A stretch of 62,901 nucleotides of DNA, filler included, from Rhabdomonas costata (GCA_019059605.1; 19 parts of 19 records of this genome joined end to end with filler, not necessarily neighbours in it); one strand, 5' to 3'. Positions 3,217-59,719 are shown, numbered from the whole stretch's first letter. Translations and numbers: made by a program. Notes: generated by a model not told the origin, from the sequence alone.

Positions 3217-3316
3217 NNNNNNNNNNNNNNNNNNNNNNNNNNNNNNNNNNNNNNNNNNNNTTAATTAATTAANNNNNNNNNNNNNNNNNNNNNNNNNNNN
3301 NNNNNNNNNNNNNNNN
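3217..3316. other. Artificial contig spacer (N44-TTAATTAATTAA-N44), first of 18. Others: 6531-6630, 9842-9941, 13155-13254, 16467-16566, 19779-19878, 23089-23188, 26398-26497, 29835-29934, 33145-33244, 36448-36547, 39756-39855, 43064-43163, 46373-46472, 49681-49780, 52988-53087, 56295-56394, 59597-59696
   Basis: Identical 100-nt block with an all-frame-stop linker recurs about every 3.3 kb, and genes are truncated at the blocks. Confidence 0.99.
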
Positions 3317-6300
3317 TGTTGGTGGAGGAATTTCCGCCAAATGTCGTGCCTGAGCAAGAAAAGACCGCCGCGTTGCTGACAATGACACTTTGGTTAATTT
3401 GCGGGGAAAACAGGGAGAACGTTCCTGGTGTGGTTCTAACGTCGCTCACAACGCTGTTGGACATGGTGGCAGTGATGGATACGTTCGCGATGTCATGGAA
3501 ACTGATCTTCTGCTGACTTGAGGCTCCCACCAGAATAACGGTGCTTCCGCTGTTTGCAGGCGCGCTGACATTCAGTGTCTGGTAACCCACTCCGGTGAAG
3601 CCAGAGGTAACCAACTCTGTATACGGGCCCGCGGGATAGGTAATGTTTACTCCCACAAATCCAGCAGTTGGCTTGACACTTGCAGTGGTGACCTTGCACC
3701 CAAAAACAGTGAACGATGAGATTGTGATCATGTCAAGCGAGCAGCGGTCTTCGGTGTCGATCACGCTCACACAGCTGGAGTCCGCACTACAGACAGCAAG
3801 CTGCTGTTCGCACAACCACTGCCCTGAAGAGACACTGTAGTACATGTCTTCATCGCAGGCAAACGCAGCACCGCCGATAGAATCCACGACAGGAGGTTTT
3901 CCACAACCCGATTCTTGTACCGCTTGTACTTCTGTTGCATTGCCCACCCACCTTGAAAAATGAGGAGTAATAAACCCTGAGGCTCCGCGCCATTCAGTGC
4001 TTTGCAGTACAAAACTCCAGCTCGTAGAGTTGATGTAATCGGAAGAGTACAGTGCAAGAAAGGGCGCGGGATTCATTTCAAGATAAGGGGAAGGGCCACT
4101 GCGAGATAATAAGTCCGCGCTGGAGAACATGGTGCATTGTATAAAGTCAGGGAATCCAGAACGGTAGAATACAAAGCAACGATTGCAAAGCAGAGAAATG
4201 TCAACTGAAAAAAGAGAATAGGTTTGTGTTGGGGTCAATGACGAAGAAGAGGAGGGAGATAGAGAAGGAGCGAGTGTCGGAACACAGGTTGGAGATGAGG
4301 AAGCTGAGGACGAGGAAGAGAGTGTCTGTGCTGGGGTGTGTTTCGAAATTGAAGTCGACGACAATGATGGCGTGCATGTTGGGGTACAGGTTCCAGAGCG
4401 TGCAGGAGACGGGGTCTGTGTAGGGGAAGGAGATGGAGAAAGAGAAGACGTGGGTTTTGGTTTTCTGGTTGGACTCACAGAGGGCGATAGGGATAGAGTG
4501 TATGTTGTTTTGGAGGTGAGTGAGGAAGTGCAAGTTAGGGTTCGAGTGGGCGTTTGCACAATAATCGGCGCATCGTTCCCAGTCATAGATGGTGTGGGCG
4601 TCGGTGTGCTTGACGGCGTAAAAGTGTGCGTAACTGTCGGTGACAGGCTTGGTGATGAGCTTGGAGATGAAGTTGGGGAGGTGGTTGGCGATGAAGATGG
4701 GGTTGATGTTGGTGAGGGGCTTGGGGAGGCTGTCGGAGTTGGGGAGCACGAAGGAGTAAAGGAAAGGGTTTGCGTTACGCCGGAGGAGAATCTGGTGGTG
4801 GTTGAAAGCGTGCGAGTCAGCGTCCGAGTGGGCGTTTGCACAATAATCGGCGCATCGTTCCCAGTAACAGATTGTGTGGGCGTCGTGCTCAGCGTGCCCG
4901 ATGGTGTTGAGGTAGGGGTAGATGTCGGTGACAGGCTTGGCGACGAGCTCGAGGAGGGAGTGACGGATGCGGTAGATAATTGCGTATTTGTTAATGTTGG
5001 CGTGGAGCTTGGTGAGTATGAAGGCGTTAAAGTCGAAGTTGTCGAAGGGGTGGTAGTGGGAGAGCTGGAAGGCGAAGGAGTAAACGATTGGGTCGGAAAA
5101 TTAGTATTTGATGTCGTCGGAGAGAAGGTTAGGGTTGGCGATGAGGTGACCGTCAGCGAATCAGAACTAGAATGAGATGCCGTGGTTGTGAAGGTCGAAG
5201 TTGGCGTGAGTGTGCTGGACGATGTCGTCGTTGCTGTGGGTGTCAAGAGTGATATAATAAACGATTCTGCGACAACTCCTCCCGGCCAGTGTGCTGTGAC
5301 CTGAACACTGTTCTGTCCGCTGAACGCCGGAACCAACAGCTCAAATGTATAGTCCTGAGACAGAACAGGGGAAACACACTCCACAATGCGCAATGATCAT
5401 ACATGTTGATTGTGAAGCGATGCTGAAAATATATTCTTAACTGAGAAGGAAACGTTTTTGCACCCTCCACACCCGCCAAACCCTTCGACTCAATATGCAT
5501 GTTACACCTCAGGCATGAGACCTTTATGGCCGTAAATTTCCAGCTATATATTTGACGGTGTCTAGTAAATTCCAGCTGCTGAAAATGAGAGAAAGTGACA
5601 AAAGCAAGCGAGTGACCTTGTTGAAAGCCCCGGAAAAATCACCAGGGCTGCAAGTGACAGCCTTTGCAGAAGCATTGCAACTGGTTTCATTCACAAGATA
5701 CACCACAATTCCGACTCCGAGATTTACATCCAGGATCAGATCAGGTACTTCGACACCAGCGACGCTGTTGTTGACATGGAGACTCACGACAAAGGGCTGC
5801 CCTGGCAAGGGTTGGATGGGCGTGCAGGACATCGACACGGAGAGGTTCGGGCGAACCACCGCGGCGACAGAGATGGCAACAGAGTTGTTTCTGGGCTCAG
5901 TAGAGCAGTGTTGGCCAGGAAAGAAAATGGCAGTTGCATTGCAGAGTACAGGGGACTGTGCATTCCAGGGAACCGGAAACAGCAGGTGCATAGTGATTAC
6001 CTGCGAGACATTGATAACCCCAAGGGAGCAGCTCTACGTCCCGCCGGTTGAGGGGCAAAGCGCCCCCGCACCAAAAACATTCACTGCTCCTGGAAACACG
6101 CCACCAAAGTTGATCTGACCACTCACTACCGTTCCCACAGCGAAGCCGGAGCCGTCATTTCCGACCACCAGAATGCAGCTCATGTTTGCGCCAGCAACAG
6201 CTCCAGTGCAGTTCATCGCCAGGGCCAACCTCGCAGCATTGAGGGTAAAGTTCATTTCGGAGAGCTGACAAGGCATAATCGACGCGAAGCTCGGGGAGCT

Positions 6301-6530: not shown

Positions 6531-6630
6531 NNNNNNNNNNNNNNNNNNNNNNNNNNNNNNNNNNNNNNNNNNNNTTAATTAATTAANNNNNNNNNNNNNN
6601 NNNNNNNNNNNNNNNNNNNNNNNNNNNNNN

Positions 6631-9941: not shown

Positions 9942-12910
9942 AAGCTGCGGTGGCTGATCGATAACATGCCGGAGGTGAAGAAGGTGCCGTATTAAGAGGG
10001 AGGGGGGACGGTCTTGGCCTCTTGCCTTTCTGCAGCATCCCTGAGTCGGGGATTCCAGGGTCTGGCTCCTGTTCCTGTTACGTGGGCTTCCGGAACGATC
10101 CTGCGACCCGTGAAACGGGCCGCAGGGCTGGGGCCGTGGGGGGTGATACGTTTACATATCTGGGAGACAAAGCTGTTTGCACCCGTTGGCATTCCCCATT
10201 TTCGGTGCATTTATTTACGTAATTGCTTCGAAGGTGTATTAGCGTACTTGTTTCGTGTCTCGTGGTCTTTAATCTGGAAATCAGAGTGACCCACACTTGC
10301 TTTGCATAGAAAACGAGAAGGAGGGAATGGGAGTTCCCGTTGTTGTTGTCTCGGGAGGTTCGTGGATGCGGTTTGCGGTGGGCAGGCTCGGTTTCCGGAT
10401 TGCCATCAGGTTCAGCCACCGGCAGAAATATTGAGTCCTCACGAACCTAACCTGAGTGCAGCGCACATTTTTTTCACGCATTTGCGTTTCCCCTCTTCAT
10501 TCTGTTGGTTTTTCCTCCGGATGTCGTAGGCTGTGGACCAGGGCGTCGCGCTGTGCGGCACGATAGACTCCTGGGTGATCTACGGCCTCACCGGAGGGGC
10601 CGTCCACCGCACGGACTGCACTAACGCCAGCCGTACCCTGCTGATGGACCTTCAAACCCGAAGTTACCACCCCACGCTGTGCGCCACCTTCGGCATTCCC
10701 CGCGAGTACGTCGTGTGCGCTGCCCCACACAGTCAGTGCACCTGTCTCTCCCCATCTTTGTGGGTTTCTTTTATCTTGCGTCGGACTCTTTAGCTATCGA
10801 GGCGAGCAGAGGGCTGAGAGCAGGGGTTTTGTAGGAGGGGATAACTGTCTAAACCGAGAAACGTCACCTCCCTTCACGGAACATGATTTGTCCAGAGAGA
10901 TAACAGCGCGGTTGCATCAGCCCAGGTGGGATCTCTGGGGCATACCTTGTGGATGGTAGAACTGGGGGTGTCACCATCAGGGAAAACCAAAACAATAAAC
11001 CAGACCCTGTCCTTCCCGATGAACCTCAGTGTAGAGACCAGCCGTCCAGGGGAGTGTGCGATTGCGGGAGGGAAATGATGCTGGGTTGCGCAACGTTTGC
11101 CCTACACAGCTGATAGCAGCACGGATCCTCAGCGCGCAGTGTGACCCCTTCCCTTCCTTTCTTGCCCCGCTTTTGTGATAAAGGATGCTCCCGGAGATCT
11201 GCAGCTGTACTGCGGACTACGGTGTGGTGCAGAGCGGGGCCCTGCAAGGGGTGCCGATCCTGGCCTGTGTGGGCGACCAGCAGGCCTCCGCAGTGGGTGT
11301 GCCTCTTTGGGGGATGCCCACCTTCTCCGGCGTTTTGCTTGGCGGGTTGTTGCGGGTGGGGGGCCTTTTCTGATCACTCGGTTTGTGGTTATTTCACCGG
11401 GACATTGAACCAGGTCCCCTTCTATGGTTTACATCGACGCCAGCAACGCCAGCAATCATGAAAAGAATTGTCTGAATCCCAGGCCGGCTTAGACCTCTTT
11501 TTTGTTGTAGTAGAGAGAAGAGAATGTACCAGACTGTGCGTTGCAGTGGCCAACTCTGTCGATGCGGGCTTCTACTTCTCGAAGAGGGGAAGCGGGTGAT
11601 TCTGGTCGCTTGCAGGCCAGGGCTGCCTGCAGTGCGGACAGGCTAAGAACACCTATGGCACGGGGTGCTTCCTGATGCTGAACACGGGCGGCACCCCGGT
11701 CCCCTCGGGCCACCGAAACCTCACCACAGTGGCCTATGACTTGGGCCGCTTCGGCGAGCCCGGCGGGGGACCCTCGTTCGCCCTGGAGGGCTCCATTTCC
11801 AGCGCGGGAAGCACCGTGCAGTGGCTCAGGGACAACCTCCAGCTGATCCAAAACCCCTCAGAGGCACTGTTCACTGGCACACTCCCCCATCTTCGTTCTT
11901 CCTTTTGATTTATTCCTGGCAAACGTGGGCTATTGGTGCCTTTGAGTTGTAAGGTAAGTGCTTTTATCTTCGTCCTCCTTCTTTTCTTTTGTCAGGCGCT
12001 ACTGAGCTCTATAATTTGAAATAAAAGTTGGTTGTACCAGCTTTCTATTCGTGCTGTCTCCCACTGCTCTAGGCTTTTCTATTATTCGCCTTCAAATCAA
12101 TTTGGGTCTTTTTCCCAAGGTTGTGGGTTTTCTCAAAGCTATTGCGTTCTTGTTTTTAGATCGAGACCTTAGCGCAAAGCGTGCCGGATTGTGGCGGGGT
12201 CTACTTTATCCCTGCTTTCGGAGGGTTGTTCGCGCCGTACTGGAGGGACGACGCCCGTGGCACCATAACAGGAACCACACTCTTCTCACCGATACCCGCA
12301 CATACACTCTCTTCTGGAATTCGTATTTCTCTCGCATTTTCTGCGGCGCTTGCGTGTTTCCACAGCTGCAAATGCGTTAGTTCCTGGGGGTTCATCTTCT
12401 TATCTATTTCTTGGCTACAACCAACCTCAGTGGAACATCCTCCTCTGCTAACTGGGTTTGTGTTCCATGATTTTTTTTCTATTGTTGACCTTTCTTGTTG
12501 TTAATTTGCCGTTGCATGTTGGGTATGGATGGAGTATTGTTGGTTGGTCACCCTGCTGATAATTTACTGTGAGTCATCTGCACCCGCACGGCTCCAGTAT
12601 TCGATTCCAGCGCTGCCACCGTTGATCAGCTGGTGGTGATGTTTCCTGAAGGGGCAGAAGTTGACCTTTCTTTTTCGTTGACGTTTCGCAGACCCTTGTT
12701 CGAGATTTCAGTGGCACATGTGTTTCGCAATTTTGCATATCTACAGAGACGCACCAATTGCCCCCCCCACACACACACCATTATAACTGTTTTTCTCAGG
12801 GATGACTCAGTACACCACAAAGGCGCACATCTGCAGAGCTGCGCTGAAGGCCACGTGCTTCTTGAGCTGCGAGCTGCTGGAAACTCTTCACCTCGACCTC
12901 AACTCAAGCG
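9942..12910 (+). CDS. GK: Glycerol kinase (FGGY family), internal fragment. Exons 9942-9983, 10530-10705, 11184-11296, 11616-11863, 12160-12271, 12800-about 12910
   Basis: Spliced product contains [69 protein letters not shown] and RGTITGMTQYT, all GlpK hallmarks. Confidence 0.97.
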
Positions 12911-16680: not shown

Positions 16681-19544
16681 TGTGTCGGCGTTCCGGCAGG
16701 CGTCGCGGAAGGAGTTGGGGCTGCTGAAGTGCCTTCGGGTGACCTTCCGGGACGGAGGCTTACGGGCCTTCTACCGCGGCGTGGGGCCGGGGATCTGCGG
16801 GGCATTCCCCTCCCACGCGGCGTACTTCACCGTGTACGAGAAGGTCAAGCAGATGCTTCACCTTGACGAGAGGCTGCGCGCCACGGTCGCTAGCTTACCC
16901 TTTCTAGCGGGTTTGTCTTCATCTCGCCCCCTGATTCCCAGTCCACACTCGGCGTTAACCAAAAATGAGAGAGAGAGCGGGTTTGCACTTCCTATTCGAC
17001 GAGATGTGGTGGTGGAGCTCAGACATCCCAGCTCTCGAATATGGCTGGCAACTGGGAAACATGTGGTCAGGCCGATTTTCGTGCCCAGAATGCCTTTTTT
17101 TTTCCGCGGCTGGTAAGAAAGCGTTAGGGATGGTACCATGGAAGGAGACATGTTTTCTTTGAGGTTGAAAAATGATGTAAGAATACATCGGTTGTTTGTT
17201 TTTCGTTGTTGGGTCCTCACAGCCTCATTTTCGTCCCCTCCCCCTCCTGATTGCCCATCACATCAAGCGCTTCCGTATCTCACTCCACAAAAACCGTCCG
17301 CATCCCAACGGTACACGTGCCCTCAGACGACTTCATTGATGAGTGGCGAGATTGCGGGGGGGCATCGTTTTGCAGGGTTGGCTGGAGCCTGCGCCACGGT
17401 GGGCCACGACCTCTTCCACACCCCATTTGACGTACTGAAGCAAAGACTGCAGATCTCCGGGGGCACGGTGGGCGTCGTCGCGATGATAAAGAAGGTTCTC
17501 ATGACAGAGGTACCCCTGGGGCGTGGGGGGGGGGGGGGTAGCCGCCGACCCGTGTTCCCCCTACTCATGCTTTCTCCTATTCTTTCCCTGCCTCATGCGT
17601 CCCCGTCCCATGTATCCCACCACCTACGCCCACCTGTCTTTTTCTGTTCTTCCCCTTTTCCCTCTTCGAGCCCATCCTCCCTTTTCCTCCCACTCCCACG
17701 CCCACCAAACCCCCTGTAGTTTTTCGTCCATTTCATCTTGCCTGGCTGGCTGAGCAGACTATGGTCATCATTCTTTTCCGGGGAAGATTACGTTCCTCTC
17801 CCAATAGCTCGCATCCCCACGGACTGCTGTGTCTTCGTATTGGGCAGAACATGGCTTGCGTTTGGCTCTTATGGGCTCCTTTTGGACTCGTTTCACCCGT
17901 ATCTTTTCTCAGACAACGAGATGACTTTGTCTTCCATTGGTTTTCTCTATCGAGTTTCTTCTTGAATTCGCGCTGCCCTTTTTGTCTTTTTTTGGTTTTC
18001 TTCGTGCGCCTTCGCCCGCTGGGAAACAGTGGGGAATGGCGGGGGGAGGGGGCTTGGCGCAGGGCGTACGTGCGTTCTACGTCTCGATGCCAACCACGAT
18101 TCTTATGAACGTGCCCTTCTCGTCTGCTCATTTCGCGACCTACGAGACGGTGAAGACCCTCCTGGGCGCCAGTGATACGGTCCTGTCCAACTGGCACCCA
18201 ATTTCCCTTTCGTTTGCTGTCACGGCAGTGCCTCTTCACCTACCTGCCCACTGGGATGGATTTGGCTTGAAGCTTGCCAAGTTAGGAAATGTTGAATAAA
18301 CGTCGCTTGCCAAGATTTTCAACCGCCCGTTGCTGCACTGAGAAAACAGAAAGAACCCAGTTGAAACCCTCGACTCTCTGCTGCGCTTCAACCCTGTCTT
18401 TTATATTATTCAGTGCTGGGTGGCTACGTATACAAAGTGAGGTCACAGCAGACATTTGGAAAGGTTTTGCTGACCCATGTGTGGATACTTTGAATTGTGG
18501 CAAAACCAGGATTGCAGTGAAATTCTCTATCTTGGAGGTCCGTCCCTTTGCAGCCACGACGGTTGGAAAACTCCTCAAGCGACTGGTTTTGATCCCTAGG
18601 ACCAACCAGATTGGAAAAGGCATCCAGGAGGGCCTCTTTTTTCTCCCAAAAACCGTTCTACAGGATAATAAACAAAGTGTTCGTATTTTTCACAAGACCA
18701 CTGCATCCAAAAGTGGGTCAAATCCCGCTGTACACAGCGATAGCAATGACTTTCCCCGCACCCCCGCGCGGGCTCGTGTGCTCATTCCCCTCTTGCTCGC
18801 TCTTCGTCTCGGTCACTCCGACTTTCCGTTTATTCATGACGCACACTTGTGCATGCCAGGACATGGAGCACTCCTTCTGGAAGTACGCCGTGGCTGGGGG
18901 CCTGGGCGGGGCCTGCGGAGGAATTGTGTCCAACCCCTTAGACGTGATCAAGACCAGGCAGCAGGTCGGGGCCCTGCAGGCCGTCGGCGTGTTCGAGGTC
19001 TGCGCCAGGGGCCTGGGGTTTTGAGGATGCGTGCGAGTGGAAAAGAGTAAGAGGGTCAGAGAGTGCGAGTGGAGTACCTTTTTGCAGATGATCACTTAGT
19101 GGAGTCAGTTTTTTGGAAAGAGCTTTGAACTGTTTTGTTCTTGCATGGGATTATTGCTTGCCCCCGTTTAGCGGTAAGAAAAGCTAAAGTCAGTATAAAG
19201 GGTACGATGGGGGCGGGGGACTGCGCTCTTGTCATGCTTCCCGCTGACAGTATGCTCTACGAAAATTAACTACCACACCACGCCACACTCTACCACACCA
19301 CAAATGGCTGCAGCGGTAGCAGTGGGATGCCTTTCTTTCTGTGCAGGCCTTCCGGACATCCCTGCAGGCTGATGGGGCACGGGTGCTGACCCGGGGGCTT
19401 GGCGCGCGTGTGCTGTACTTTGCGCCCTCCGCGGCGATCTCGATGACCTCGTATGAGGTCGTGAAGTGGGGCCTGCGCCAGACCTCTCTGGCGCGGTGGT
19501 GCCAGCTCCCGGACGGTCATGGCCATCATGAGCATGGCCGGTGA
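16681..19544 (+). CDS. Mitochondrial carrier, mitoferrin/MRS3-4-like (SLC25A28/37), 5' truncated. Exons 16681-16910, 17376-17509, 18063-18179, 18860-18997, 19347-19544
   Basis: PxDxxKxR motifs (PFDVLKQRLQ, PLDVIKTRQQ) plus mitoferrin-type GAFPSHAAYFTVYE, GACATVGHD and MNVPFSSAHFATYE. Ends in TGA. Confidence 0.9.

Positions 19545-27187: not shown

Positions 27188-27220
<33 letters not shown>
27188..27220. repeat. (GT)n microsatellite
   Basis: Uninterrupted TG dinucleotide run. Confidence 0.95.
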
Positions 27221-27222
<2 letters not shown>

Positions 27223-27282
27223 GGTAGTTTAGTTACGTCGGCGAGAGAAAAGGCAGGAGACGGTGAGAAACGAGAGAGAGGC

Positions 27283-29652: not shown

Positions 29653-30007
29653 CTGATCCCCCCGTCCCCATGCACAGTTTTGTGAACGTCCCCCAATTGT
29701 ACAGCTCTGCGCCTTCTCGCCTTCCTTCAAGCGATAATGCGATGCGATGCGTAATATATTGCATTGGCAGCGGTACCATCTAATCCTCTCTCAGGCACTT
29801 CACTCACTGTCTTCCCCTCCAACACGCCAACACANNNNNNNNNNNNNNNNNNNNNNNNNNNNNNNNNNNNNNNNNNNNTTAATTAATTAANNNNNNNNNN
29901 NNNNNNNNNNNNNNNNNNNNNNNNNNNNNNNNNNGTGTTGGGTTTGACCACTTGGACTCAGCAGATCCGCAGAGTCCAAGTGGTCAAACCCAATCCCTTC
30001 CTTACAG

Positions 30008-56394: not shown

Positions 56395-59300
56395 GTTTTG
56401 TTGTCGCTGCGGAGTCTGTGGAAGCGATAATCAAGATTGCCGAGCCGCAGGCAGTGTTCCCGACAGGGTTGGAGAGACCCTTCCCTATTGGGCAGCCCGA
56501 GGCTTGGACAGCTATGGAGAATCATATCAATGAGCGCTCGCAGTACCAGCTCGATTTCTCTGTCGCTTCGCTGCATATTCACCTTCATTACCGCCAGCAA
56601 AAATTTCTGCATTGGATGGTGTCTTCCTTCAGCACGGATTTGGGAAGACTTCCCTCCTCAAAGCCAGTTCAGAGCGCTTCAGCTGGGCCTGGTTCCGGGT
56701 CGGGCTCATGTTGACGCGTTCGATTTGGACGTCACAGCGCCCTTTTCGACTGTGCTGCACTCGGATGAGGAAGCTGTCTCAGGTTCCCTCGTGGTAGACG
56801 GGCGTCTGAAAACAGATCTGGAATCTCCCGACGTTCTGCTCCAGACTGCATTATCAGATTATGATTTTGCCGGATTTGAGCCCGAACCTGTGCACTCCTC
56901 GGAACAGCCTCAGGGATCGAGATTAGAGCATTGCTACAACCTAACCTTTTCCATTGTTGAGGTTTTCTTCTGCAGCCTTAGCAGAGCTGCTGCCGGTGAA
57001 AGCTCTTATCTCACCTCTACCGCCGCTGGCTTCCTTTTGACTGAGGATCTGGGATCTTCTTCAGTGAGCATTTTGCGCAGCAAAGTCAGCACTGTTTCAC
57101 GTCCTCTGAGACTCAGTGTGACTCCTCCAGCGGCTGGAAATGCGCCGAGTAAGGTTTTTTCGGTTGATGTTCGCTTTGCGGTGTGGTTCTGCATCATTTT
57201 TTATCAGCTCCTAGGGACATTGGGTCTCTCGGCTTGCTGCGGTTTTTCAGGGCGAATCTGCACCTTCGCCTTCAGGTATCGGGGACAGTCTACCGGTGGA
57301 GCTTGCCAGCGAGCACTCCTCGGAAGGCGAGTCCTCCTCAGGGGAATCTGCAGTGCCGGTAGTGCCGGTGCAGCTTAGTTTCGAAGTTCAAGTTTCCGTT
57401 TTGTGTGGATTAAAAGATGCAGACCACCCTGCAGAGGTTGTTGCATCGCTTGGTACGGTCAGCGTCACCTCTGCGAAGCTCTTGGAAGTTGGTCCGTGCG
57501 GTTGTAAACCGCGAGTGGGCTTGACCTGCGACCTGAAACACATTGAGCTTTTGATTAGGGTCGACCCCAAAAGCCTGTTCCGCAGAAGCATTTCTGCTCC
57601 TAAAAACGAATGGGAGAATGCTCTGTTGAAGAAGCAGGGCAGCGGTTGTGGATTTGCAGGGATCCTTCAAGCAGAGCTCGGATTTGTCAGGTTTGCCACC
57701 ACAGAGTGCCTCACAGTTGAGGTGTTGTATTCTCCCGGCTGCATTCCCAGGTGTGACATAGTGCCCCCTTAACTTGGAAACGCAGCGGCATATTTCGAAA
57801 GGAGCACCATTCCGAGCAGCAGCAGCGGCGGCGGCGGCGGCGGTGGCGGCGTTGCCCAAGGTTGCTCTCCACAAATGCCTGAAGTCTACACGCGGCTCTC
57901 CAGTTGCGTCGTTGAGGTGGAAGTTTTCCCCGAATCCTTCCAGCATATTCTGCAGTTGGCACAGCGGTGCTCTTCTCAGGTCGTAGCTGCCTTTCAGGTT
58001 GTGCATCAGCGGCAGGAAGCGGTGTACCAATCTCTGGCCGAAGGAAGACGGGAAGAACAGTTACGGCTGATTACCCAGGCTCTTCCAATCCGCTTGGTCC
58101 ATGCCACAAGTCTCCAACGTGCTGAAAGCGTGGATTCTTTTGATGCTGTCCCGGAAGCCCGCGATTACTTTCCCGATAATGAGCACATGGTGGATTACTC
58201 ACCTGTGATTCTCAGTCACCACACCACGATCCCTTCTGCTTCCGGTGTTTGTATTGCAGGTCGGGACGTTGTCCCTGAGTCGCCAGCTTCCTCTTCCTCT
58301 TCTATGGAATGTGAAACATTTGACCGTGACCTTCACCAATGGTGCTGTACCTGGTCATAAGGAGCGTTTGGCTGATTCCATTGACCCAAGCATTGCGTCA
58401 GGCCCTCACTTGCTTCCTCTGGGGACGCCCATTCTTTCTTCCGTAGCTGACGAAGATCGAGGAGGTTCATCACCTGAAAGCTTTGCCGCTACTCCTGAGG
58501 GTCCAAAAGCAGTTTTGCATCCGGCTTTGATAGCACGTGAATCAAAAGAAATTTTTTTCGTTTTTCAGAGGGCTCCTGAGATTGTTCAGCACAGTGATTT
58601 GTATCGTCCTTACACGACGTTTGCCACATCTCCGGTTTCTTTTGCTCTTCGACTTCATGCTGGTAAAGGACCTGCTGGCTGCTCAGAGCGTCCACAGGAA
58701 GGCCCTTCGCGTTTGGGTGAGCCAGAGATCGACCGCGTTGTTGACGTTCATCTGCATGGTTTGGAGGTTCGCTTTGACTCTTCCTCAGATGACCAATCCC
58801 CGTATGTTTGGTGGGTCCAATGCATTCTTCGTGACCTGCAGCTAAATGGCAGGAGCACCCATGCCGCAATGTTGGACCGACTTCCCGGTTTCCAAAGCAG
58901 CGGGCACCCATCTTTGATTTGCTTTCGATGCGATGAGGTCCGTCAGGATGAGCGCCACTGTACTCGGGTAGAGCATCGCATTGACCTCGACATCCAGCAT
59001 GTGAAGCTTCATGTGGATCAGGAGACCTTGGAGCTTTTGTCAAGCTTTGCAGGAGACGATAAAGGGTCCTCCCAACAGCCGGTCGGTGTTCCTGTGCTGG
59101 AGGTTCATCCGCACGATACCAGGTTTTACATTCAACGGTTCACCATTTCGGCCATTCGCTTGAGCTTCTCAAGCGAAATGAAGCAGCTCGATTTGACTAA
59201 GCTCGCACAGGGGAACTACTTCCAGCTTATGAATCTGGCATCAATAAACGCAACGCTTTCTCTGCGCAGTGCAGAAGTGACAGGTGCCGGAGGTTTCCAG

Positions 59301-59405
59301 CAATTGATGAGTCGCCTTCTGGACATTTGGAGGGACACCCCTCTCTTGTCGATTCTGCGGATGATCCGGTTGGAGGACTCGGTGATGATTTTGGAGGACC
59401 CTAAA
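56395..59405 (+). CDS. ATG2: ATG2-like autophagy lipid-transfer protein (VPS13/ATG2 superfamily), internal fragment with long exons and short introns
   Basis: VKLHVDQETLELLSSF and FYIQRFTISAIRLSF...LDLTKLAQGNYFQLMNL...LSLRSAEVTG..GF..L...LLDIW match the ATG2 C-terminal region. Frame changes fit introns such as 57181-57250 and 58190-58259. Confidence 0.8.
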
Positions 59406-59719
59406 GTATGCATTGGTGCTGTTTTTCACCATACATACACACACACACCGCAGTGCGCCCAACACACACCCGCTCTCTCTCTTTTGCTGCCCGTTCATCC
59501 GAAAAGCACAAAGGTTTGTTTCGGCGAGAGAAGCCCCAGTCCCCCCTCAAAGAAAAACTAACGCAGAGCCTCAGGGACCCGAGCAGCAATGGAGCANNNN
59601 NNNNNNNNNNNNNNNNNNNNNNNNNNNNNNNNNNNNNNNNTTAATTAATTAANNNNNNNNNNNNNNNNNNNNNNNNNNNNNNNNNNNNNNNNNNNNGGTG
59701 GTTGGTTCTGTGCACTCAG

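Follow-up and report, generated by a model that had tools for sequence, protein, structure and literature searches.

A glycerol kinase intron with GA–AG borders as written in the euglenid Rhabdomonas costata

How might an intron be removed when it opens with neither GT nor GC? This question is raised by the fifth intron (intron 5) of a glycerol kinase gene in the draft genome of the euglenid Rhabdomonas costata. The gene lies in a 62,901-nt stretch of DNA, hereafter the window, in which 19 R. costata contigs, each of ~3.2 kb, are chained by linkers consisting of 44 N, TTAATTAATTAA and a further 44 N (e.g., at 3217–3316 and 6531–6630). Genes that adjoin in the window are therefore not adjoining in the genome. 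Intron 5 sits on the contig at 9942–13154, whose borders truncate the gene at both ends and leave six exons. As written, the intron begins with GA and ends with AG. With about even confidence, we read it as an ordinary U2-type spliceosomal intron whose donor dinucleotide is GA. Coordinates are those of the window, on the plus strand unless stated otherwise.

Borders and setting of intron 5

The exons were defined by tblastn with the bacterial GlpK proteins P0001, P0018 and P0098, together with Pfam domains and solved glycerol kinases. Exon 5 (12160–12271; IETLAQSV... plus a final G) matched the PDB glycerol kinases (E 1.4e-11) and Pfam FGGY_C, and exon 6 (12800–12909; (G)MTQYTTKAH..., with M at 12802) was placed by tblastn. 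Direct reading and a script both found 528 nt between these exons, running from GA to AG at 12272–12799, as the original prediction had proposed in setting an intron of this length between ARGTITG, ending at 12271, and MTQYTTKAH, starting at 12802. With the 528 nt excised, the spacing again agrees with that in bacterial GlpK and in the solved glycerol kinases, and a Gly codon is split as GG|G or G|GG. When joined by the script at the GA–AG cut, the six exons encode 267 residues free of stops, which scored 376.9 bits (E 2e-116) against a GlpK profile derived from 93 of the 120 homologues retrieved.

The two ends of intron 5 share the motif CAGG, so that its start can be slid over 12269–12273 with the mRNA unchanged. 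The five equivalent cuts have the borders CA–CT, AG–TC, GG–CA, GA–AG and AA–GG. None of them provides a GT or GC donor, in agreement with what had been claimed for this junction, and GA–AG is the sole cut with one canonical end. The exon ends, the GA and AG borders, the normal acceptor and the predominance of conventional introns around them are shown by the sequence of the window.

At the 3′ end, the pyrimidine tract and acceptor CTGTTTTTCTCAG occupy 12787–12799, with the AG at 12798–12799 and a G opening the next exon. This arrangement resembles the other 13 acceptors in the window, and the acceptor was rightly described as canonical. All 14 acceptors examined end in AG, with G as the next base in 12 of them; their positions include 10529, 11183, 11615, 12799, 17375, 18062, 18859, 19346 and 30007, and, on the minus strand, 29653, 28335 and 27540. 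From reading, TATAAC (12782–12787) is a possible branch site, its A at 12786 lying 13 nt before the intron end; the 14 acceptor regions yielded no branch-site consensus.

At the 5′ end, the intron sequence starts with GAACCACA, and the donor region reads CAG|GAACCA (12269–12277). The A at 12273, in place of T, is the only base that sets it apart from GTACC-type donors. GAACC is one base from GTACC, the donor of intron 2 in a mitochondrial carrier gene, and near GTACG, that of glycerol kinase intron 2. The G|G at the exon end and intron start agrees with most donors in the window. In addition, the exon ends in AG and the intron has G at +1, giving the AG|GAA flank found in documented GA–AG introns.

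We placed 13 donors in the window: six in glycerol kinase (the last provisional), four in the carrier gene, one in RIB43A and two in a minus-strand protein kinase gene. Eleven are GT, one is GC and one is GA, and the 11 complete introns comprise nine GT–AG, one GC–AG and one GA–AG (intron 5). Beyond G|GT, these donors carry little information, with little consensus from +3 to +6. Transcript-level support covers the four carrier introns only; the other introns were placed by homology and reading. The carrier exon at 16700–16909 (70 residues) is 100% identical to P0179 (277 aa; eukprot:RCo037450), a transcript-derived protein, and its next best matches, labelled as transcript assemblies, show 58–62% identity. 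R. costata transcripts are numbered in the RCo style (PMC8219788). A tblastn search of the window with P0179 reproduced the four hand-predicted junctions (FLAG|LAGA, MTE|GVRAF, ASDT|DMEH and GVFE|AFRT), all of which are GT–AG. The predominance of conventional introns in the window agrees with the published picture of R. costata, in which GT/AG borders were reported for each of the 29 complete introns of six genes and just seven introns among hundreds are likely nonconventional (PMC8219788).

The conventional acceptor, the usual G|G, the closeness of GAACC to GTACC and GTACG, and the AG|GAA flank underlie our reading, in which intron 5 is spliceosomal and has a GA donor. Under this reading, the 3′ half (the possible branch site, the pyrimidine tract and CAG|G) would be recognised in the usual manner, and the 5′ cut would fall at CAG|GAACCA. 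The expected mRNA junction would be ...ATAACAG|GGATGACT..., and the predicted protein, ...ARGTITGMTQY..., has the best family fit of the possible products. Judging from the sequence, removal at this site by the spliceosome would also be expected in vivo. Several points weigh against such a donor. Most eukaryotes use GA donors only rarely, and GA is found in one of the 13 donors seen here. The CCA at +4 to +6 does not favour pairing with U1. The homology gain over the strongest shifted cut, described below, is merely 0.8 bits. Finally, the searched protein collection contained no protein of at least 145 residues with exon 4 above 66% identity, even though the R. costata carrier protein was present in it; we therefore saw no indication of expression of the gene.

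Alternative readings

The alternative that survives best, a serious but clearly less probable one, is that the donor is faulty or misread. Position 12273 may truly be T, altered by an assembly or amplification error, or the contig may represent a haplotype with a recent GT-to-GA mutation. In the latter case the intron would be retained, translation would meet a stop near 12502, and this copy would make no working enzyme. A GT-to-GA change at +2 is a classic splice-killing change, and GAACCA is a single substitution away from the GTACC donors of nearby introns. The lack of a transcript-derived R. costata glycerol kinase in the searched collection, where the carrier protein was found, also fits this explanation, although low expression could account for it equally well, as could the filter against bacteria-like transcripts described for these data (PMC8219788), the enzyme being bacterial-looking. 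The draft was assembled from amplified DNA at a low coverage of 10–20x (PMC8219788), and a 28-nt palindrome at the start of another contig is the type of artefact that amplification yields. However, the six exons show no damage and are well conserved, which means that any inactivation would be recent, and a consensus error at exactly 12273 is unlikely a priori (~1e-5 by our own estimate).

Removal by the nonconventional system of euglenids, which acts independently of the spliceosome and yields a circular intron, appears unlikely. The host is a euglenid, and such introns are known in the group: 57% of 28,337 introns in E. gracilis (PMC11170887) and 71.8% of introns in E. agilis (PMC12501133) are classed as nonconventional. 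We took the features of the class from PMC12501133, PMC4770533 and PMC11170887. Its code is N3-CDG...CH′G-N5-6|R (PMC12501133, PMC4770533), in which the downstream exon opened with a purine in 55 of 55 cases (PMC4770533). In a knock-in test, C as the first downstream exon base failed, and synthetic introns depended on base pairing of the stretches immediately inside CAG and CTG (PMC12501133). A stable structure joins both intron ends (PMC12501133, PMC4770533, PMC11170887).

At intron 5, the nonconventional cut would fall at 12265|12266 and 12793|12794, or 1 nt further downstream, and would give ...ARGTISGMTQY... with an expected mRNA junction of ...GGCACCAT|CTCAGGGATG.... The original prediction had pointed to a 528-nt excision shifted 5–7 nt upstream, and such cuts do stay open in frame: shifts of 5–6 nt (12267–12794 and 12266–12793) produce GTISGM and the 7-nt shift (12265–12792) produces GTFSGM, the introns starting with AA, TA and AT, respectively. 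These borders, which lack the GT/GC–AG pair, correspond to those by which the nonconventional class is recognised. It had also been noted that AACAG (12267–12271), with its candidate CAG at 12269–12271, can pair with CTGTT (12787–12791), with its candidate CTG at 12787–12789; the two arms do form 5 bp. The C at 12787 is shared with the possible branch site TATAAC. A cut at 12266 puts CAG at +4 to +6, which matches the 5′ rule exactly, and leaves CTG near the 3′ end.

The two spacer rules are never satisfied together in frame. In-frame cuts give N3 with N4 or N2 with N5 only, and N3 with N5 or N6 would excise 529 or 530 nt and shift the frame. A short 3′ spacer is tolerated to a degree, since one base fewer left ~20% of the normal transcript in Euglena (PMC12501133). 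In addition, the downstream exon of a shifted cut would open with T (12794) or C (12795), pyrimidines where the 55 published cases have a purine (PMC4770533).

The pairing of the intron ends also argues against this system. No pairing forms between the 12-mer that follows CAG and the 12-mer that precedes CTG (+0.9 kcal/mol). AACAG/CUGUU is the only end helix; the test of Gao et al., which joins 10 nt of each end by a linker, puts it between −2.4 and −3.8 kcal/mol. Taken alone, this helix favours the nonconventional cut, and two of nine control introns also reach −2.4 kcal/mol or better in this test, for which one of the nine controls was placed with coordinates a base off. The best end-to-end duplex (36 nt of the 5′ end against 41 nt of the 3′ end) has −4.8 kcal/mol, a value matched by 127 of 200 shuffles. 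Among the 10 introns compared, a set without the protein kinase intron, no other has so weak a duplex, because both ends of intron 5 are G-poor. With flanks of 30 nt, the fold of the complete intron reaches −148.9 kcal/mol and thereby gains no stability over 40 shuffled versions (−155.7 kcal/mol, standard deviation 6.5); the AACAG/CTGTT helix is missing from the lowest-energy structure.

We further determined how often such motifs arise by chance. A loose arrangement, defined as N3-CAG and CTG-N4-6 within a same-length shift of −9 to +3, occurs in the window at 4.1% of position pairs drawn at random, and at 8.7% when the exon ends in CAG|G, or in 4–9% of comparable pairs; none of the nine control introns has it. 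The CAG/CTG arrangement at intron 5 is thus only mildly unusual. With four defining features tested and unmatched, we do not file intron 5 as nonconventional, and since the stable end structure is missing, we also leave it out of the "intermediate" class where that class is defined to include such a structure.

Protein homology adds little to this choice. Among the 114 motif-matching homologues (of 120), the disputed residue is T in five and S in none. The products score 376.9 bits for GTITGM, 376.1 bits for GTISGM and 373.5 bits for GTFSGM, and the 0.8-bit gap between the first two is too small for homology to pick between them. The original prediction had offered either a GA–AG intron or one with features of both splicing systems; the first part is upheld in that GA–AG is the only cut with a canonical end, whereas the nonconventional features fail in register, in the purine and in pairing.

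Readings that mix the two systems are weaker still. Intron 5 could be a bridge between them, one that began as nonconventional and has since gained a spliceosomal 3′ end while still lacking a GT donor, which we regard as very improbable. Its removal would then be carried out by both machineries, or by a GA-tolerant spliceosome aided by a residual CAG/CTG contact. There is an equally slender chance, or slightly less, of a true hybrid that both systems can remove or that is caught in mid-conversion from nonconventional to conventional; in the mid-conversion version, the AG and pyrimidine tract have been gained, GT has not, and a decayed CAG/CTG is retained. The overlap of the two signal sets within 7 nt speaks for a hybrid, and both motifs occur together in 0.8% of E. 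agilis introns (PMC12501133). However, every point raised against nonconventional removal counts here too, and published hybrids base-pair like nonconventional introns (PMC12501133), which intron 5 does not.

A dinoflagellate-style GA donor, as part of a genome-wide use of GT, GC and GA with AG|G acceptors, has next to no chance of being correct: the 12 of 14 AG|G acceptors and the one GC and one GA among 13 donors do resemble the description of Symbiodinium, but the match of the carrier gene to the euglenid transcript-derived protein P0179 is 100%, with all four junctions confirmed, and with a euglenid host this donor system is ruled out. A dinoflagellate spliced-leader relic had one match with three mismatches in the window against 1.06 expected.

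Two other candidates for the nature or origin of intron 5 were rejected. The 5′ ends of U12-type introns follow RTATCCTT, which GAACCACA does not match. Birth by duplication of the adjoining exons was likewise discarded, as the scores of the local alignments were reached by 210 of 500, 314 of 500 and 117 of 200 shuffles.

Gene structure and other features of the window

The upstream part of the glycerol kinase gene consists of four exons and four introns. Exon 1 (9942–9983), recognised by tblastn to bacterial GlpK and by reading, contributes 14 residues and is truncated by the contig start at 9942. Intron 1 (9984–10529, GT–AG) reads aag|GTGCCG...GTCGTAG|g and leads to exon 2 (10530–10705), placed by tblastn and carrying Pfam FGGY_N (E 1.9e-11). 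Intron 2 (10706–11183, GT–AG; cga|GTACGT...ATAAAG|g) precedes exon 3 (11184–11296; ...GDQQASAVG), which was assigned by tblastn and reading, and is followed in turn by intron 3 (11297–11615, GT–AG; tgg|GTGTGC...CTTGCAG|g). The start of FGGY_C lies in exon 4 (11616–11863), identified by tblastn and Pfam as bacterial-type GlpK with a best identity of 66%. Intron 4 (11864–12159, GC–AG; gag|GCACTG...TTTTTAG|a) separates it from exon 5. The 5′ end of intron 4 has the form N3-CTG with no matching CAG at the 3′ end; with no CAG at −8 to −6, it falls outside the nonconventional code. Downstream of exon 6, the donor GTGGGC at 12910 is provisional, since the contig stops at 13154 before the next exon.

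The exons have a GC content of 0.64 and the introns of 0.42–0.54, with 0.47 in intron 5. The exon used as query recovered bacterial-type relatives only, and bacterial GlpK is the nearest match of the enzyme (66% identity across 82 residues), although the gene has at least five spliceosomal introns. It may represent an old gene transfer and may be weakly expressed.

Within intron 5, we observed two stretches complementary to the splice junctions. One pairs 12269–12277 with 12640–12648 (8 of 9 positions) and the other pairs 12801–12809 with 12570–12578 (9 of 9). If formed together, these helices would cross, and both are missing from the lowest-energy fold. They are probably due to chance, as we estimate about one perfect 9-mer per 600 nt. 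A short CA/GT microsatellite run occupies 12767–12779 inside the intron, and a further one lies at ~27200–27240, past the 3′ end of the protein kinase gene. The window holds no second copy of intron 5 that would suggest a repeated or mobile element. Spliced-leader motifs of Euglena and dinoflagellates occurred in the window at chance level or were absent, and an Rfam scan of the window gave no match.

Three further regions were of note. At 29938–29993, at the start of a contig and just before the RIB43A exon, lies the 28-nt palindrome mentioned above, an inverted repeat without a loop and 93% complementary, which may reflect an amplification or assembly chimera or the end of a mobile element. 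On the minus strand, 3261–5396 is an open frame of 711 residues, rich in Ser, Thr and Pro and mucin-like, with an internal 140-nt repeat of 81% identity at 4528–4661 and 4810–4949. Both opposite-strand frames are open as well, as expected from composition, and no Pfam family scored above its curated cut-off in the 711-residue frame. Finally, 58209–59558 is a very divergent ATG2-like open reading frame (Pfam ATG2_CAD, E 2.5e-14). The best of 1.84 billion representatives is 29% identical to it, its named relatives are fungal, and a word-based search gave no match. For the overlapping open reading frames at 56431–59558, a listing of GT–AG pairs was uninformative on odd introns, with 2566 candidates at the first junction.

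Comparison with known systems

If the GA donor of intron 5 is real and used, it would document the acceptance of GA by a euglenid spliceosome. It would also caution against calling every euglenid intron without GT/GC–AG borders "nonconventional", as genome-wide surveys do (PMC12501133, PMC11170887): intron 5 has non-canonical borders yet fails the structural tests for that class. If the contig instead carries a null allele or a base error, the relevance is limited to the annotation of the glycerol kinase gene. In either case, the observation concerns one intron of a fragmentary draft and opens no new mechanism. Our literature search returned no report of a GA–AG intron in a euglenid and, for newer work on R. 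costata introns, nothing beyond the 2021 paper and a ribosomal DNA paper. Non-canonical borders in R. costata have already been published, from 105 contigs and in supplementary tables (PMC8219788), and intron 5 may already be listed in Supplementary Tables S4–S6 of that paper.

The original prediction had invoked both euglenid nonconventional introns and dinoflagellate GA donors. The former remain pertinent because the host is a euglenid, and the dinoflagellate precedent does not apply since the host is not a dinoflagellate. Intron 5 shares the GA donor and the G after the acceptor with dinoflagellate introns; it differs in lineage and in the usage around it, with GT in 11 of 13 donors here, whereas the use of GC in Symbiodinium is described as nearly equal to that of GT.

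In common with euglenid nonconventional introns, intron 5 has its host group, the lack of a GT or GC donor, a CAG near the 5′ end and a CTG near the 3′ end, and slidable borders. It departs from them in a spacer one base short, a pyrimidine-first exon, and the lack of an inner stem and of a stable end structure. Like the euglenid intermediate introns, it combines one canonical border (AG) with one non-canonical border. A border-based count in the E. gracilis draft table gives 30 of 271 introns as intermediate, and intron 5 would be assigned there if its borders were the sole criterion. The definition of that class also demands a stable secondary structure, and the authors of the defining paper themselves doubt that the class is real; unlike such introns, intron 5 has no stable structure joining its ends.

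The closest counterparts are the working GA–AG introns known elsewhere. U2-type examples have been described in the copepod Eurytemora affinis, the tunicate Oikopleura dioica and human FGFR genes, and in two animals the AG|GAA flank is accompanied by RNA support (PMC7072748). SYMRK of Trema provides a further example. The known cases have a strong remaining donor or a proposed variant U1, in contrast to the CCA at +4 to +6 of intron 5 and to the generally weak donors of the R. costata window. Intron 5 resembles them in its GA donor, its AG acceptor, its otherwise normal 3′ half and its AG|GAA flank.

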